From: Escherichia coli
Lineage (GTDB): Bacteria > Pseudomonadota > Gammaproteobacteria > Enterobacterales > Enterobacteriaceae
DNA: 64,000 nt
Reading direction: 5' to 3' (one strand)
Assembly (NCBI RefSeq): GCF_017348835.2
Contig: NZ_CP071375.1
A program made the position numbers and the translations under genes. This document shows positions 12,244 through 59,953 of the stretch, piece after piece. How positions within the stretch are numbered: position 1 is the first letter of the stretch; every line of letters starts with the position of its first letter. The notes below the pieces were generated by a model, which saw nothing but the letters and a program-made list of their open reading frames with translations, ran no database searches and was not told the DNA's origin.

Positions 12244-12380
12244 CCGTTGCTCCCTTAAGGGAGAAAGACAATCACAGCTTACCCTTACGTTGCCTGTAAC
12301 TATGATTTTCTTCATGTGCTAGATGAGGAATGTTTCATTTCTGCCCGGAACCACCAAGTCTTGGGCGGAAAAAATAAAAA

Positions 12381-12406
12381 AACCGACTGTCATGTCGGTT
12401 TTTTTA
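12381..12406 (-). terminator. hairpin plus U-run downstream of mnmH (A-run/T-run flanked, likely bidirectional)
   Basis: aaaaaaaccgactgtcatgtcggttttttt: stem ccgac/gtcgg, loop tgtcat. Confidence 0.5.
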
Positions 12407-12468
12407 TATCTGTATTCTGGTGCAACCATTCTGTTCTCACGACAATCGCCGTTTCAGAATACCGCCCA

Positions 12469-25370: not shown

Positions 25371-25490
25371 CCCTTACCTTTAAAGCGGATGCGATTTATA
25401 TCGCATAAGAGTGCAGTACTCATGCCGGATGCGGCATGAGTACCATATCCTTCCTGAAAATCGCGCAAATTCTATATATTGCAGAGATCA

Positions 25491-25521
25491 TGTAGGCCTG
25501 ATAAGCGAAGCGCATCAGGCA
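25491..25521. repeat. REP element
   Basis: tgtaggcctgataagcgaagcgcatcaggca. Confidence 0.6.
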
Positions 25522-25528
25522 ATGTTAC

Positions 25529-25555
25529 AAAAAAAGCCACGGTATAAACCGTGGC
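25529..25555 (-). terminator. intrinsic terminator downstream of ylbA/allE
   Basis: Minus-strand reading gccacggtttataccgtggc followed by TTTTTTT. Confidence 0.6.
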
Positions 25556-25597
25556 AAAATCCAACATAGCTAAAAATAATCAGGCGAGTGGTATGAC

Positions 25598-47010: not shown

Positions 47011-47087
47011 GCGCCCTTAGCTCAGTTGGATAGAGCAACGACCTTCTAAGTCGTGGGCCGCAGGTTCGAATCCTGCAGGGCGCGCCA
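47011..47087 (+). tRNA. argU: tRNA-Arg (anticodon UCU)
   Basis: 77 nt gcgcccttagctcagttggatagagcaacgaccttctaagtcgtgggccgcaggttcgaatcctgcagggcgcgcca; cloverleaf with anticodon loop cuUCUaa. Confidence 0.95.
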
Positions 47088-52371: not shown

Positions 52372-53064
52372 TTAATTATGTCTCTTAAGGGTTTGCGACT
52401 GACTGATTAAGACCTTTCCAAAGACCATGAATCGGTGTTCGTTTTCGCTAGTAATTCCCCATTCACGGTAAATCTGGTTATCAGAAATCACCAGCAGTTT
52501 GTCAGGAATCATTTGAAGTCTTTTAACGTATATTTTGTCATCAAAACCAAAGACATATATACCATCACCATCAAACTGATTGATGCTGACATCAACGAAG
52601 ATGAGATCTCCTGGCTCAATGGTTGGACACATACTGTCCCCACGAACGTTGATAACTTTGATGTGATTGGCTGGTCGTCCGCCGAACATTGATACAGCAT
52701 TATCAGTTCTGTATTCGATGGCATGAATCACATCAATGACATCACCGCCCTGGATAAGGCCATTTCCCGCACTGGCACTGATATCCAGCATTTCAATACG
52801 GAACACATCCTTCACCTGCGCAACATCCTCATTATTACTGTTTTTATATACAGTATTACTTTTGTGGGCAGAGGTAAAGAGATCAGCAATATCAACACCT
52901 AAGCTCTTGGCAATATTACTCAGTGTTTGTTCGGTAAATTGTTTTTGCTTACCCGTTTCTAAGCGCGAGATGTTCGCCGCATCTACTCCTATTGCTTCAG
53001 CGAGATCGGCGATTTTCATGTTCTTCGCTTGGCGAAGTTGTCTGACTCGGTTTCCTATGTTCAT
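52372..53064 (-). CDS. cI: CI-type prophage repressor (XRE HTH plus S24 LexA-like peptidase domain)
   Basis: 230 aa; N-terminal HTH (MKIADLAEAIGVDAANISRLETGK); C-terminal GDSM ... K peptidase motif. Confidence 0.85.
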   Translation of the reverse strand: MNIGNRVRQLRQAKNMKIADLAEAIGVDAANISRLETGKQKQFTEQTLSNIAKSLGVDIADLFTSAHKSNTVYKNSNNEDVAQVKDVFRIEMLDISASAGNGLIQGGDVIDVIHAIEYRTDNAVSMFGGRPANHIKVINVRGDSMCPTIEPGDLIFVDVSINQFDGDGIYVFGFDDKIYVKRLQMIPDKLLVISDNQIYREWGITSENEHRFMVFGKVLISQSQTLKRHN

Positions 53065-53161: not shown

Positions 53162-53422
53162 ATGCAATCACCATTACGAAATGTGCGTAAGGCGCATGGT
53201 TTCACTTTGCAGCATGTTGCTGCGGGTGTTCAAGTCAATCCAGCGACGTTGAGTCGTATTGAGAGGCTGGAGCAGATTCCATCTATCGAGCTTGCAGAAC
53301 GTTTAGCCAATTTTTTTAAGGGTGAAGTCAGCGAAATGCAGATTCTTTATCCGGCACGTTTTCAATCTAGCCAAAACCAGAATGGGTTTAAACCACAGGA
53401 ACAGGAGGTGAACCGTGGGTAA
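53162..53422 (+). CDS. cro: Cro-like HTH regulator
   Basis: 86 aa; HTH (GFTLQHVAAGVQVNPATLSRIE); GGAGGG upstream; divergent from cI. Confidence 0.75.
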   Translation: MQSPLRNVRKAHGFTLQHVAAGVQVNPATLSRIERLEQIPSIELAERLANFFKGEVSEMQILYPARFQSSQNQNGFKPQEQEVNRG

Positions 53423-54310: not shown

Positions 54311-55252
54311 ATGAGCACTAAATTAACCGGCTATGTATGGGATGGTTGCGCTGCGTCAGGCATGAAATTATCCAGCGTGGCAATTATGGCCCGCCTGGCT
54401 GATTTCAGTAATGACGAAGGTGTGTGCTGGCCATCAATTGAAACCATTGCCCGTCAGATTGGCGCGGGGATGAGTACCGTCAGAACGGCTATCGCACGGC
54501 TGGAAGCAGAAGGCTGGTTAACGCGTAAGGCGCGTCGCCAGGGTAACCGCAATGCGTCGAATGTTTATCAGCTTAACGTTGCGAAGCTTCAGGCAGCGGC
54601 ATTTTCTCAACTGTCAGATTCTGACCCGTCAAAATCTGACGCATCAAAATCTGACCCGTCAAAATTTGATGCGTCGAAATCTGGCAAAAAAGCGGGTTTT
54701 CACCCGTCAGAATCTGGCGGGGATCCGTCAGTAAAATCAAAACATGATCCGTCAGATAAAAAAACTTCTCGTCCGGACGCTTCGCAACCGGACACGCAGA
54801 AGGCTGAACAGGAGTTTTTAACTCGCCATCCTGATGCGGTTGTATTCAGCCCTAAAAAGCGCCAGTGGGGAACGCAGGATGATTTGACCTGCGCACAGTG
54901 GCTCTGGAAAAAAATCATCGCCCTGTACGAGCAGGCCGCCGAATGTGACGGCGAGGTGGTTCGTCCCAAAGAACCGAACTGGACAGCCTGGGCAAACGAA
55001 ATTCGCCTGATGTGTGTGCAGGATGGTCGTACTCACAAACAAATCTGCGAGATGTACAGCCGCGTCAGCCGCGATCCGTTCTGGTGCCGTAACGTGCTCA
55101 GCCCGTCGAAGCTGCGGGAAAAATGGGATGAGCTTTCCCTGCGCTTATCGCCGTCCGTCAGCACGTACACCGAAAAACGCGAAGACCCGTACTTCAAAGC
55201 CAGTTACGACAACGTGGACTACAGCCAGATCCCGGCAGGATTCAGGGGGTGA
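54311..55252 (+). CDS. replication initiator (O-like; N-terminal winged-helix; C-terminal region possibly YdaU/DUF1376-like) with internal origin iterons
   Basis: 313 aa; central repeat-encoded low-complexity region; position after cII. Confidence 0.65.
   Translation: MSTKLTGYVWDGCAASGMKLSSVAIMARLADFSNDEGVCWPSIETIARQIGAGMSTVRTAIARLEAEGWLTRKARRQGNRNASNVYQLNVAKLQAAAFSQLSDSDPSKSDASKSDPSKFDASKSGKKAGFHPSESGGDPSVKSKHDPSDKKTSRPDASQPDTQKAEQEFLTRHPDAVVFSPKKRQWGTQDDLTCAQWLWKKIIALYEQAAECDGEVVRPKEPNWTAWANEIRLMCVQDGRTHKQICEMYSRVSRDPFWCRNVLSPSKLREKWDELSLRLSPSVSTYTEKREDPYFKASYDNVDYSQIPAGFRG
54620..54762. repeat. putative replication origin: ~7 iteron copies (core CCGTCAG) followed by an A-rich tract
   Basis: tctgacccgtcaaaa / tctgacgcatcaaaa / tctgacccgtcaaaa / tttgatgcgtcgaaa tandem 15-mers plus cacccgtcagaatctgg, gatccgtcagtaaaatc, gatccgtcagataaaaaaa. 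Confidence 0.6.
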
Positions 55253-55254
55253 TC

Positions 55255-55743
55255 ATGAGTCTTTTGAATGACGTTCAGAAATTCATTGAAGCCCATCCGG
55301 GCTGTACTTCCGGAGACATTGCGGATGCTTTTGCAGGTTACTCACGGCAGCGCGTTCTGCAGTCAGCAAGCAAGTTACGTCAGAGTGGGCGTGTGGCTCA
55401 CCGTTGTGAAGGAGATACACACAGACATTTCCCGCGCCTGACTGAGAGAGCGCAGGATCCGGAACCACAACCAGTTCGTGAAACCAGACCTGTGCGCAAT
55501 TTCTATGTCGGCACTAACGACCCGCGGGTGATTTTGTGCCTGACCCGCCAGGCGGAAGAACTGGAGTCCAGGGGCTTATACCGTCGTGCTGCAACGGTGT
55601 GGATGGCGGCATTCCGTGAAAGCCACTCCCAGCAAGAGCGAAACAATTTTCTTGCGCGTCGTGAGCGGTGTTTACGGAAAAGCAGCAAGCGCGCTGTATC
55701 GGGTGAAGAGTGGTATCTGTCAGGGAATTACGTGGGGGCTTAA
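55255..55743 (+). CDS. hypothetical regulator, possibly PerC-family-like
   Basis: 162 aa from MSLLNDVQ; GGGGG 7 nt upstream; basic C-terminus with LYRRAATVWMAAF motif. Confidence 0.4.
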   Translation: MSLLNDVQKFIEAHPGCTSGDIADAFAGYSRQRVLQSASKLRQSGRVAHRCEGDTHRHFPRLTERAQDPEPQPVRETRPVRNFYVGTNDPRVILCLTRQAEELESRGLYRRAATVWMAAFRESHSQQERNNFLARRERCLRKSSKRAVSGEEWYLSGNYVGA

Positions 55744-56069
55744 TGACGACGTTAACTCAATGCCAGCAGCAGGTGCTGGATATGCTGATTTCTTACCAGA
55801 AAGAACGTGGCTTCCCGCCAACCAATCAGGAGGTGGCTACCATGCTGGGATACCGTTCAGTGAATGCAGCGGTGGAGCATCTTCGCGCACTGGAGAAAAA
55901 AGGCGTCATCACGATAAAGCGTGGCGTGGCCCGGGGCATCACGCTTCATACCGCGGTGAAGGACGACGACAGCGAGGTGGCCGGGATTATCCGCGCACTG
56001 CTTGCTGGTGAGGAAAACGCCAGGCTGCGTGCAACCCACTGGTTACATGAGAGGGGCCTGAAAGTATGA
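55743..56069 (+). CDS. LexA N-terminal DNA-binding-domain-only paralogue (no S24 peptidase domain)
   Basis: 108 aa MTTLTQCQQQVLDMLISYQKERGFPPTNQEVATMLGYRSVNAAVEHLRALEKKGVITIKRGVARGITL aligns along the whole LexA winged-helix domain ([68 protein letters not shown]). Confidence 0.7.
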   Translation: MTTLTQCQQQVLDMLISYQKERGFPPTNQEVATMLGYRSVNAAVEHLRALEKKGVITIKRGVARGITLHTAVKDDDSEVAGIIRALLAGEENARLRATHWLHERGLKV

Positions 56070-56455
56070 AGCTGATCCTGCCTTTTCCGCCCAGCGTGAA
56101 CACGTACTGGCGACACCCCAACAAAGGGGCGTTTGCTGGTAAGAGCCTGATAAGCGCGGCGGGGCGAAAATTCCAGAGCGCGGCGTGCGCAGCAATAGTT
56201 GAGCAGTTACGTCGTCTGCCGAAACCAACGTCGGCACCTGCTTCAGTGGAGATCGTGTTGTTTCCTCCGGATAACAGGATCCGCGATCTGGACAACTATA
56301 ACAAGGCGCTGTTTGACGCCCTGACCCACGCGGGGGTGTGGGAAGACGACAGTCAGGTGAAAAGAATGCTGGTGGAGTGGGGACCGGTTATCCCGGAAGG
56401 GAAGGTCGAGATCACTATCAGTAAGTACGAGAAAACGGCGGGTGCAGCTGCCTGA
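56066..56455 (+). CDS. rusA: Holliday junction resolvase RusA
   Basis: 129 aa; LPFPPSVNTYW ... DLDN motifs. Confidence 0.85.
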   Translation: MKLILPFPPSVNTYWRHPNKGAFAGKSLISAAGRKFQSAACAAIVEQLRRLPKPTSAPASVEIVLFPPDNRIRDLDNYNKALFDALTHAGVWEDDSQVKRMLVEWGPVIPEGKVEITISKYEKTAGAAA

Positions 56456-56474
56456 TCAAGAGGAGAAACGAAGT

Positions 56475-57284
56475 ATGAATAATCTGATGGTCATTGATGG
56501 TATTGAAGTTCGTCGTGATGCTTATGGGCGTTACAGCCTGAACGATCTGCATCGCGCAGCAGTAGCATCTGGTGCAAATGCCAGAACCAAGGAGCCAGGA
56601 AAGTTTCTTTCCAGCCAACAAACTGTTGAGCTTGTTCATGAATTAACCAACACCCAGAATTTGGGTGTTGACCCGGTGAGTGTGATTCATGGGGGAAATG
56701 AACGGGGAACGTATGTCTGTAAGGAACTGGTGTATGCCTATGCAATGTGGATCAGCCCGTCATTCCATCTGAAGGTGATCCGTACTTTCGATATGGTAAC
56801 CAGCGCGCCGGAAAAGTTATCCGGACAGGTTGCTGACAAGATGCAGGCTGGCGTGATTCTGCTGGACTTTATGCGCCGGGAGTTAAATCTGTCTAACTCA
56901 TCTGTGCTTGGGGCCTGTCAGAAACTCCAGGAGGCTGTTGGCTTACCGAATCTGGCACCGCGCTATGCCATTGATGCACCTGCTGACGCGCCTGATGGCT
57001 CAAGCCGCCCGACGCTGTCGCTGAGTGCACTGCTGAAGCAGTATGGTATCCGCCTGACGGCTAATCAGGCATATCACCAGATGGCGAAGCTGGGGATCGT
57101 TGAACAACGCGAACGATACAGCCGTACCGCGATTAACAACATCAAAAAATTCTGGTCGCTGACAGCGAAAGGTTGCATGTTCGGCAAGAACATCACCAGT
57201 CCCGCAAATCCGCGCGAGACGCAGCCGCATTTCTTCGAATCCCGATTCCCTGAGCTGTTAAAGCTGCTCGATACCGTTCATTGA
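56475..57284 (+). CDS. KilA-N domain protein (putative antirepressor-like)
   Basis: 269 aa from MNNLMVIDGIEVRRDAYGRYSLNDLHRAA; AGGAG upstream. Confidence 0.65.
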   Translation: MNNLMVIDGIEVRRDAYGRYSLNDLHRAAVASGANARTKEPGKFLSSQQTVELVHELTNTQNLGVDPVSVIHGGNERGTYVCKELVYAYAMWISPSFHLKVIRTFDMVTSAPEKLSGQVADKMQAGVILLDFMRRELNLSNSSVLGACQKLQEAVGLPNLAPRYAIDAPADAPDGSSRPTLSLSALLKQYGIRLTANQAYHQMAKLGIVEQRERYSRTAINNIKKFWSLTAKGCMFGKNITSPANPRETQPHFFESRFPELLKLLDTVH

Positions 57285-57285
57285 G

Positions 57286-58281
57286 GTGAACGTGAGAGCG
57301 CTACTGACCCCCGAGATTGCCCCGCGTATGGGGATCGTATTGTTCAGACCCGGTTCAGAGCTGATGCCCCTGTTTATGCAGGGGCGTGTCCTGCTGGAGC
57401 CTGAGCCGGAACGTTATTCATCTTTTGCCAGTGGTGCCGTTCCGGCTGCATCACAACCGCTGGCGGATGATCCTGCCGTTCGGGCCGTGTTCCGCAATGA
57501 GGCAGTGATCCGTCGTGCTGGTGGCGTGGAATGTCTTGAAAGCTGGTTACTTCGTGAAAAAGGCTGCCAGTGGCCTCATTCCGACTGGCACAGCGAGAAC
57601 ATGACCACAATGCGACACGCGCCGGGCGCAATCCGTCTGTGCTGGCACTGCGATAACCAACTGCGCGATCAGTTCACGGAACGGCTGGAATCAATGGCAA
57701 CGGATAACTGTGCCCGCTGGGTGTTGTCTGTTGTGCGTCGGGATCTCGGTTTTGATGACAGTCACGTTGTGACAATGCCGGAACTGTGCTGGTGGCTGAT
57801 TCGTAATGATCTGGCGGATACCTTACCGGAAAGTGCAGCCCGTAAGGCACTGAGATTACCGAAGCCTTTTGTGCCGTCTGTCACCCGGGAAAGTGACCTG
57901 GTGCCTTCGGTTCCTGCCACCAGCATCATCCAGAATAAAGCGAAAAAGGTGCTGGCGCTGAAAGTGGATCCGGAGTCGCCGGACTCTTTTATGTTACGCC
58001 CAAAACGTCGCCGCTGGGTTAATGAAAAGTACACGCGATGGGTTAAGACGCAGCCGTGCGCATGTTGTGGAAAACCTGCTGATGATCCCCACCACCTGAT
58101 AGGCCACGGTCAGGGTGGAATGGGGACAAAAGCGCATGACCTCTTTGTGTTGCCTTTGTGCAGAAAGCATCACGACGAGCTGCATGCGGATACTGTGGCA
58201 TTCGAAGAGAAGTATGGCTCCCAGCTGGAGCTGATATTTCGTTTTATCGATCGTGCGCTGGCGATTGGTGTGCTGGCCTGA
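57286..58281 (+). CDS. DUF968 (YdfU-like) protein with C-terminal Cys/His cluster
   Basis: 331 aa; [12 protein letters not shown] ... CRKHHDELH. Confidence 0.65.
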
Positions 58282-58298: not shown

Positions 58299-58682
58299 AT
58301 GCGTGATATTCAGATGGTTCTTGAGCGTTGGGGAGCGTGGGCGGCTAATAATCATGAAGATGTGACTTGGTCGTCCATTGCCGCCGGTTTTAAGGGATTA
58401 ATTCCTTCAAAAGTAAAATCTCGCCCACAATGTTGTGACGATGACGCGATGATCATTTGCGGGTGCATGGCCCGTCTGAAAAAGAACAACAGCGACTTGC
58501 ACGATTTATTAGTAGATTATTATGTAGTCGGTATGACATTCATGTCACTGGCAGGTAAGCATTGCTGCTCTGATGGTTATATCGGGAAAAGGTTACAGAA
58601 GGCTGAGGGCATAATTGAAGGGATGTTAATGGCATTAGATATCCGGTTAGAGATGGATATCGTTGTTAATAACTCTAATTAA
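58299..58682 (+). CDS. quuD: late-gene antiterminator Q
   Basis: 127 aa from [18 protein letters not shown]; Cys-rich zinc-binding region. Confidence 0.8.
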
Positions 58683-58870: not shown

Positions 58871-59953
58871 TTAGAACTGGTAAACCATACCTACAGCAAC
58901 GATATCATCGGTAGCAACGCCAGATGCTTTCGTGAAATCGCTCTTATCAATCAGGTTGATTTTGTAATCAACAAAAGTGGACATATTTTTGTTGAAGTAA
59001 TAGGTTGCACCTACATCAATATATTCAACCAGGTCCTGATCACCCCACGCACCCAAGTCTTTTCCTTTAGATTGCAGGTAAGCAACGGACGGACGCAGAC
59101 CGAAGTCGAACTGATATTGTGCAACTACTTCGAAGTTTTGTGCTTTGTTGGCAATATGGTTATTACCAAAAACAGTCATGTTCTGGGTTTCAGAATAGGT
59201 GGTAGCCAGATAGATGTTGTTCGCATCATATTTCAGACCAGCTGCCCATACTTCAGCATTTTGACCAGATGCATTCAGGCTGTTGTTACCGTAGATAACC
59301 TGATTATTAGTGCGGTCAGATTTAGCATAGGTTGCACCTACACCGAATCCTTCATACTCATACGTAGTGGAGAAACCGAAACCATCACCATTAGCTTCAG
59401 TTACGTCAGTGCGGTCATTTTTACCCTGATACTGAGCAGCAAAGTTCAGACCATCAACCAGACCAAAGAAGTCGTTGTTACGATAAGTTGCAACACCAGT
59501 GGTGCGACCAGTCATGAACACATCTGTTTGGGTCCAGGTATCGCCACCGAATTCTGGCAGAACGTCAGTCCACGCACCGATGTCATATGCTACACCGTAG
59601 TTACGGCCGTAATCGATTGAGCCGTAGTCCCCGAATTTCAGGCCTGCAAATGCAAGACGGGTTTTGTCTTTGGAGGAGCCTTGAGATTCAGCGCGGTTGC
59701 CTTTGAATTCATATTCCCACTGACCGAAACCAGTCAGTTGATCGTTGATTTGGGTTTCACCTTTGAAGCCAAGACGGGCATAAGTAGTATCACCATCATC
59801 TGCATCATTAGAGGAGAAGTAGTGCTTGGCATTAACTTTCCCATATAGATCCAGCTTGTTACTGTCTTTATTATAAATTTCAGCTGCCTGAGCAGACATC
59901 GCCATCAGTACTGATGCGGCTACAGCAGAAATTGCCACTGTTAATTTTTTCAT
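58871..59953 (-). CDS. nmpC: prophage-encoded outer membrane porin (OmpC/OmpF family), uninterrupted
   Basis: 360 aa; signal peptide; C-terminal ...VGMVYQF beta-barrel signature. Confidence 0.9.

Follow-up and report, generated by a model that had tools for sequence, protein, structure and literature searches.

A KilA-N domain gene with an unnamed C-terminal module in lambda-like prophages of Escherichia coli, a possible accessory regulator analogous to Roi and Ant

The KilA protein of phage P1, which is lethal on expression, is a two-domain phage protein in which an N-terminal KilA-N domain is followed by a C-terminal ANT/KilA-C domain. Roi, which is found in HK022 and in Stx phages, combines a Rha domain with ANT/KilA-C, and its gene lies in the nin region between a junction resolvase gene and Q. 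Roi reportedly binds DNA within its own gene, a finding ascribed to Clerget and Boccard in 1996. It has been reported as implicated in lytic growth (PMC3430580). Stx phage Phi24B carries another gene of the Bro network, ant, in the nin region upstream of Q, and deletion of Ant lowers the activity of the late promoter pR′ on induction and leaves superinfection unaffected (PMC3064807). BstA of the Salmonella prophage BTP1 joins a KilA-N-like N-terminus to a C-terminal domain of its own; the gene is found downstream of cI and is expressed at a high level in lysogeny, it has its own terminator, and a cognate aba element overlaps its start (PMC8585504). Here we analyse a KilA-N domain gene that occupies the same slot as roi, at positions 56475–57284 of a 64,000-nucleotide stretch of the E. 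coli contig NZ_CP071375.1 (assembly GCF_017348835.2); this whole stretch is called the window below. We tentatively read the gene, with somewhat less than even credence, as an accessory, delayed-early DNA-binding regulator of the Bro network that would tune lytic development, with a position and an architecture analogous to those of Roi and Ant.

The gene is an open reading frame (ORF) of 810 nucleotides with an ATG start and a TGA stop, and it is 100% identical to RefSeq WP_052892388.1 of E. coli 05-3629, which is annotated as 'KilA-N domain-containing protein'. Hence the 269-residue ORF of the original prediction coincides with an annotated gene. The KilA-N domain that had been called at its N-terminus is also correct: Pfam PF04383 matches with an E-value of 2.4e-22 and 79.2 bits (profile positions 5–105 of 107), above the gathering cut-off of 23.8 bits, and the AlphaFold2 model of this domain is a beta/alpha core with pLDDT of 74–89. 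Moreover, the phrog_129 profile matches residues 1–267 at profile positions 2–268 of 273 (E 7.8e-124); PHROG 129 is named 'transcriptional regulator', which is an annotation and not a tested function. The features of the gene, all on the plus strand, are as follows.

56460..56465, plus strand: Shine-Dalgarno sequence GAGGAG of the KilA-N gene, 9 nucleotides before the ATG, by reading of the sequence
56475..57284, plus strand: gene of the KilA-N and C-module protein, 269 amino acids, member of PHROG 129 (ORF, Pfam, phrog_129 and RefSeq identity)
56493..56801, plus strand: KilA-N domain, residues 7–109 (Pfam PF04383 and AlphaFold2 model)
56559..56708, plus strand: variable cassette, residues ~29–78, covering helices a2–a3 and strand b3 of the model, with allele A in the window (from variation among 80 loci)
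56820..57281, plus strand: conserved unnamed C-terminal module (C-module), residues 116–269, with a helical hairpin, an acidic coil and a basic alpha/beta sub-domain

The C-terminal half had been described as unassigned. This is right as far as names are concerned, with no match in Pfam, NCBIfam or PDB sequences, but wrong if it is taken to mean filler, as the half is a strongly conserved domain. Among 26 aligned enterobacterial homologues, conservation is higher in the C-module than in the KilA-N core. Residues 111–269, as query in an exhaustive HMMER search, gave 786 representative protein clusters at E ≤ 1e-3, and most of these relatives are proteins of 250–290 residues that match in their C-terminal half. 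Within the phage collection, the module is carried by APSE (protein G), by Pseudomonas JBD68-like phages and by Klebsiella phage SopranoGao, and its last ~90 residues are also found in Paenibacillus and Ruminococcus phages. With an alignment of 52 C-module sequences (A3) as input, AlphaFold2 predicted a single compact domain (pLDDT 93.3, pTM 0.83), composed of a helical hairpin, a long ordered coil with a near-invariant YAIDAP...GSS and an alpha/beta sub-domain with GKNxTSPxNPRETQPH[WF][YF]. Foldseek gave no significant fold relative for this model, with best E-values of 0.14 against PDB and 0.03 against BFVD. The C-terminal half belongs to a genuine domain family, as yet without a name, whose fold is predicted with confidence.

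The weak Foldseek matches, all sub-threshold, are enriched in winged-helix DNA binders, including PadR/LmrR, MarR, DnaD-N and RTP, and sub-threshold Pfam matches to PadR, GntR and ANT in some members of the family agree with this trend. In addition, a basic alpha/beta sub-domain is a family-wide feature, with a mean net charge of +4.9 and a pI of 9.7, and the coil before it is acidic. From the basic sub-domain and the sub-threshold winged-helix matches, we infer that the protein may have DNA-binding or regulatory activity.

In some database proteins (P0134, P0135, P0139, P0150 and P0121), one of the two halves, KilA-N or C-module, is combined with a baseplate J, antiterminator Q, tail-tip J, SipB/SseC or Ash domain. 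Fusions of KilA-N to tail J, baseplate J, Q and SipB were rejected as true architectures. These proteins most likely arose at deletion junctions in prophages that are decaying, or through chimeric assembly, and they inflate the apparent diversity of architectures.

The N-terminal partners of the C-module place the protein in a known network. In 77 diverse full-length relatives, Pfam identified Rha in 28, Bro-N in 17, KilA-N in 8, ORF6N in 5, AntA in 4 and P22_AR_N in 1. A scan of one genome per species gave 80 loci, with 37 KilA-N and 32 Rha-type N-termini and a few AntA-, ORF6N- and Bro-N-like ones. KilA-N and the other partner families of Pfam are listed in the Bro network of DNA-interactive regulators (PMC10111431, citing Iyer et al. 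2002). Because the C-module is shuffled among N-termini of this network, the protein is, as judged by its sequence, a member of the Bro network with a C-module that lacks a Pfam name. The original prediction had proposed to search for homologues of the C-terminal half, and this placement is the outcome. Protein G of APSE (with a KilA-N N-terminus), gp39 of JBD68 (Bro-N), gp47 of SopranoGao (Rha) and the homologues of SfV, ST64B, cdtI and mEp460 share the C-module at 39–99% identity; all of them are encoded in early operons and all are uncharacterised. More distant carriers of the C-module are encoded in early operons as well, with cro-like or replication genes close by. The KilA-N/C-module gene of APSE phages is accessory, being present in some and absent from others (PMC7313666).

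Comparison with the described systems shows a shared plan with different parts. Roi and the KilA-N protein both have a two-part Bro-network architecture, a length of about 240–270 residues and a putative DNA-binding domain at the C-terminus. However, Roi is composed of Rha and ANT/KilA-C, whereas the 269-residue protein is composed of KilA-N and a C-module without significant similarity to ANT; moreover, the internal binding site and the link to IHF are features of Roi. P1 KilA shares the N-terminal KilA-N domain, but its ANT/KilA-C C-terminus is not present here. The role of Phi24B Ant, that of boosting late expression from pR′, is the kind of role proposed for the KilA-N gene, although Phi24B Ant shares the C-terminal domain of P22 Ant and the KilA-N protein has neither a P22_AR nor an ANT domain.

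Clear antirepressor homology, the other outcome that had been considered for this gene, was not found; the C-terminal half is common to proteins with antirepressor-type N-termini, yet it is not an ANT/KilA-C domain. The layout of motifs had led to the guess that the half is a divergent ANT/KilA-C domain (PF03374), and this was rejected by profile–profile comparison and by Pfam. The protein has no Pfam match to ANT, and only 2 of the 52 C-modules reach an E-value of about 0.1; hhalign gave a probability of 0.3% for A3 against Roi, and of 0.2–0.4% (E 0.16–0.28) for A3 against an alignment of 28 ANT sequences. There is likewise no Pfam match to P22_AR_N or P22_AR_C in the protein, and one distant C-module relative carries P22_AR_N. 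An embedded immunity RNA, as in the Bro genes of P4, P1 and APSE, was a further candidate that was rejected, with no C4 or isrK match.

The gene sits in the early-right operon of a lambdoid prophage of the SfV/mEp460 type. The placement in a nin-equivalent region between rusA and a DUF968 gene, as first proposed, is correct, and both neighbours are recognised by Pfam. The genes that define this context are the following.

52372-53064, minus strand: cI-like repressor of the immunity switch (ORF, RefSeq annotation)
53162-53422, plus strand: cro-like gene of the immunity switch (ORF, RefSeq annotation)
56066..56455, plus strand: RusA Holliday-junction resolvase, upstream of the gene (Pfam RusA, E 6e-15)
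57286..58281, plus strand: DUF968/HNHc_6 protein of the YdfU/PdcB-type His-Me finger/HNH kind, downstream of the gene (Pfam DUF968, E 1.7e-80)
58305..58682, plus strand: antiterminator Q of the QuuD type, at the end of the early-right operon (Pfam Phage_antitermQ, E 3.8e-52)

Further 5′ of the gene lie those for a LexA-DNA-binding-domain protein, a PerC-like protein and an O-like replication protein, then cro and the divergent cI-like repressor gene. The KilA-N gene is about 3.4 kb downstream of cro and runs in the same direction as cro, O and Q; 19 nucleotides separate it from RusA, and 1–7 nucleotides lie between its stop and the start of DUF968. A consensus scan found no plus-strand promoter-like site anywhere from cro to Q, and there is no terminator-like site flanking the gene. 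Given the co-orientation, the small gaps and the lack of a promoter-like site, the simplest reading is a delayed-early gene of the pR operon that is silent in the repressed prophage. According to this arrangement of the sequence, synthesis of the protein is expected to require either induction of the prophage or infection.

Variation within the gene is concentrated in a single segment. We compared 80 E. coli-type viral loci in which the C-module is ~99% identical, drawn from a scan of viral contigs that recovered near-identical E. coli copies only; variation is confined to residues ~29–78, residues 1–25 and 76–269 are mostly 90–100% identical, and near-fixed differences between alleles A and B occur only in 56550–56750. 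At least four cassette alleles exist, which are 34–40% or 82% identical to each other.

Allele A, as in the window: 57 loci
Allele B: 12 loci, 34–40% identity to A (L027:4743-4931)
Allele C: 7 loci, 82% identity to A (L071:4698-4931)
Allele D: 3 loci, about 36% identity to A (L064:4731-4931)

In complete E. coli genomes, allele A or C is present in 988, allele B in 1011 and allele D in 359; by these frequencies, the polymorphism of the cassette is balanced and of high frequency. The KilA-N domain has been described as holding a helix-turn-helix-like motif (PMC8585504), and in the model the cassette plausibly forms a recognition surface. The cassette allele does not follow clusters of the immunity-side, replication, Q or post-Q segments (all p > 0.25), and no co-varying column was found in the block from -1250 to +1450 nucleotides around the cassette. 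This pattern fits a variable external target, which may be DNA or protein, and it thereby keeps alive both an antirepressor reading and the reading as a conflict system. Relative to allele A, allele C has a 33-nucleotide insertion that duplicates the stretch encoding 'TQNLG', so that the alleles vary in length as well as in sequence; this suggests repeated recombination or duplication within the cassette segment.

The neighbourhood of the gene is more constant than the rest of the prophage. In the same 80 loci, with a gene counted as the window's type at 90% identity or more, RusA was of this type in 77/78 loci and DUF968 in 77/77, against 12/74 for cI, 15/76 for cro and 1/73 for Q. RusA, the KilA-N gene and DUF968 move together as a single block, whatever the immunity and Q type of the locus. 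The order RusA, KilA-N/C-module gene, DUF968 and Q, with overlapping start and stop at DUF968, is also found in Vibrio phage Pm34 and Morganella phage IME1369_02, and Providencia phage PSTCR8lys has the same gene order with unannotated flanking genes; the DUF968 proteins of these Vibrio, Morganella and Providencia phages are only 34–40% identical. In a metagenomic phage, a gene for Rha and a C-module (44% identical) stands directly before DUF968 (36% identical), and Q follows.

Such linkage leads to one alternative explanation, in which the protein would be a targeting or regulatory partner of the downstream DUF968 nuclease; the two would act as one unit on DNA, either in processing during recombination or replication or in attack on competitor or host DNA, and the cassette would pick the target. 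Several of the observations above agree with this: the start of DUF968 only 1–7 nucleotides past the gene stop, the start/stop overlap in the Vibrio, Morganella, Providencia and metagenomic loci, the constancy of DUF968 while the cI, cro and Q types vary, and an adjacency that outlasts a swap of the N-terminus to Rha. In the species-level loci, DUF968 starts at most 17 nucleotides after the gene stop in 33/80, all of Enterobacterales or Orbales. A survey that assigned DUF968 to group 7 of the His-Me finger proteins listed RusA, Q and 'antirepressor' among its neighbours (PMC5714182). Translational coupling of the gene and DUF968 is likely. However, the two genes are separable, as each is found without the other. 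In species-level loci of Edwardsiella, Aeromonas, Corallincola and a few others DUF968 lies 0.1–2.7 kb downstream, and in those of Pseudomonas, Burkholderiales, Halomonas and a Bacillaceae genome there is none within 5 kb; the C-module genes of JBD68, SopranoGao and APSE have no DUF968 within this distance either, and the non-enterobacterial ones among the phage carriers named above lack it as a neighbour. Vibrio phage Her, P1 (pdcB), Pantoea AH07 and phage LLS have DUF968 but no C-module gene. Moreover, RusA is as tightly linked as DUF968, so that adjacency may be plain synteny of the nin block, and no DUF968 segment co-varies with the cassette allele. The block linkage could thus reflect functional coupling or, equally, a co-inherited nin-region block, and we regard a nuclease partnership as unlikely. 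A bolder version, in which the C-module protein and its coupled DUF968 nuclease form a two-gene, early-lytic DNA-targeting unit against competing prophages, phages or host DNA, with the target set by the cassette, appears to us quite improbable.

DUF968 also has a recurrent position of its own. It stands directly upstream of a late-transcription activator gene, or within two short genes of it, in the window (57286-58281), in loci L093, L094 and L008 and in P1; the activator is Q in lambdoid phages and Lpa in P1, where pdcB (L097:3004-4047) ends 89 nucleotides before lpa with the C1-controlled promoter Plpa between them. This position before the late activator may be a meaningful rule.

The variable cassette and the company of the C-module both bear on a second alternative, that of an antirepressor. 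The protein would bind and inactivate CI-type repressors, either its own, which would speed induction, or those of co-resident prophages, which would cause cross-induction, and the cassette alleles would choose the repressors. The C-module is shared with proteins bearing AntA, P22_AR_N, Bro-N and Rha N-termini, some relatives are annotated as antirepressors, Phi24B Ant in the same slot promotes induction, and the three frequent cassette alleles fit a variable protein target. However, these annotations were made by homology only, and no homology to characterised antirepressor domains is detectable, with a probability below 1% for ANT/KilA-C and no Pfam match to P22_AR_C or ANT. The gene travels with many immunity types rather than with one, as shown by the window's cI type in only 12/74 carrier loci, and the cassette allele does not follow immunity type. 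A cognate-antirepressor link was rejected in the form in which it was looked for, with no association of the gene or of the cassette allele with immunity, replication or Q modules. In addition, the gene lies downstream of pR and has no promoter-like site of its own, LexA-controlled or otherwise, and hence could not initiate induction. Taken with the points in its favour, we consider an antirepressor function doubtful.

The original prediction had also suggested a role beyond antirepression, in abortive infection. In its BstA-like form, the protein would provide abortive infection or superinfection exclusion and shield the lysogen from heterologous phages. The high-frequency cassette polymorphism resembles that of conflict genes, and the defence library gave a single signal, a match to the unvalidated PADLOC candidate PDC-S22 over 37 residues of the KilA-N core (E 1.6e-5). 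Beyond the N-terminus, the resemblance to BstA ends: its C-terminal domain is unrelated and there is no detectable overall homology, with E ≥ 0.19 by BLASTP against BTP1 BstA and a probability of 0.8% by hhalign. Neither half of the protein was matched by the PADLOC BstA model at E ≤ 1, where BTP1 BstA as positive control gave 1.9e-124, and the C-module matches no PADLOC model. The contexts differ too. Whereas bstA stands next to cI and is expressed in lysogeny, the KilA-N gene lies outside the immunity region, in the middle of the early-right operon, without a promoter-like or terminator-like site of its own, and no aba-like element was seen. No direct repeat brackets the start region (56446–56510), although aba sequences are homologue-specific and sequence alone cannot prove absence; repeats in or near the gene are short and at chance level. 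The suggested role thus found no support, and we hold it to be very unlikely. Since neither homology was found, neither the abortive-infection nor the antirepressor reading is established.

The reading as an accessory delayed-early regulator draws its support from the slot analogues together with the features of the C-module. According to it, the protein would be made early in lytic growth from the rightward operon; the KilA-N domain and the C-module would both contact nucleic acid, with the KilA-N cassette setting target specificity, and binding would tune lytic progress, be it through replication, through recombination or at the turn to Q-dependent late transcription. The regulator may possibly act together with the co-translated DUF968 nuclease. 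The gene would be dispensable, since in other lambdoid phages the slot is filled by Roi or Ant or is left empty. Several points weigh against this proposal. The presumed DNA binding is drawn from domain type and charge only, and the carriers of the C-module are all experimentally uncharacterised. The C-module has near-invariant polar residues (Y164, D167, S176, S177, T180, R214, K238, N239, E248, T249, Q250 and H252), which would also fit an enzyme or a conserved pocket for a ligand or a protein. Finally, no cognate DNA site was found; no repeat is evident, and the cassette allele has no co-varying segment within about 5 kb.

The surrounding prophage has further features. A small LexA-type protein of 108–119 residues is encoded at 55710-56069 (plus strand); it consists of the DNA-binding domain only (Pfam LexA_DNA_bind, E 3.7e-19), without the S24 peptidase domain, and belongs to the same conserved block, being present in 72/77 loci. 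If made early in induction, a LexA-like protein of this kind, which would not be cleavable, could modulate SOS genes. A tandem repeat at 54552-54740, within the O-like replication gene (54311-55252), encodes DPSKSDASKSDPSKFDASKS; ORFs cross the DPSKSDASKSDPSKFDASKS repeat on both strands, and a sub-threshold Rfam match to 'mir-5880' at 54612-54686 is spurious. Located in a gene for an O-like replication initiator, the repeat probably represents origin iterons. An OmpC/NmpC-like porin gene at 58871-59953 (minus strand) lies between Q and the holin/lysozyme genes, as in DLP12, and in the matching genome an iss/bor-like gene for a serum-resistance lipoprotein follows the lysis genes; both look like lysogenic-conversion morons. 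At the left, a tRNA gene (47011-47084, plus strand, 72 bits) adjoins the prophage integrase gene intD, located at about 47.1–48.3 kb by correspondence with locus L002, and presumably marks the left end of the prophage, as its attachment site. On the right, the window ends before the prophage does. Outside the prophage, in chromosomal DNA of the window, there are Rfam matches above the gathering score to the enterobacterial small RNAs STnc480, ES036, naRNA4 and AgrB (25457-25591, 3386-3463 and 12319-12407), which are unrelated to the gene.

The KilA-N and C-module gene is present in 2292/5426 complete E. coli genomes (about 42%), with up to 4 copies per genome, and in 51 phage records, including mEp460 (gp48), cdtI (orf50), Ayreon and Stx2c phages; a protein search adds SfV, SfII, SfIV and ST64B (sb46) as carriers. 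It is a very common accessory gene of lambda-like E. coli prophages, already annotated and uncharacterised. One contig of 2.5 kb labelled 'MAG: Collinsella sp.' (L098, JAIJJM010000478.1) has the E. coli allele of the gene at 99% identity together with DUF968, and is almost certainly a mis-binned fragment of an E. coli prophage and not actinobacterial Collinsella.

In large part, this is an ordinary gene, an annotated accessory gene with an inferred function. The delineation of the C-module family, the RusA–gene–DUF968 block and the KilA-N cassette alleles are what our analysis adds, and none of them would greatly surprise a phage specialist. The C-module is nevertheless a large domain family without a Pfam entry or a structural relative, and it deserves a name and a structure. 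If the two-gene unit existed, it would be an unrecognised phage-encoded conflict system in the nin region. The gene family has never been studied, and its carriers include Stx2c-converting phages and serotype-converting Shigella phages. If the gene is an enhancer of the Roi or Ant kind, it would affect the efficiency of induction, and hence toxin release, in many pathogenic lysogens. Moreover, the cassette polymorphism and the RusA–gene–DUF968 block offer experimental handles on how members of the Bro network choose their targets, which is poorly understood.

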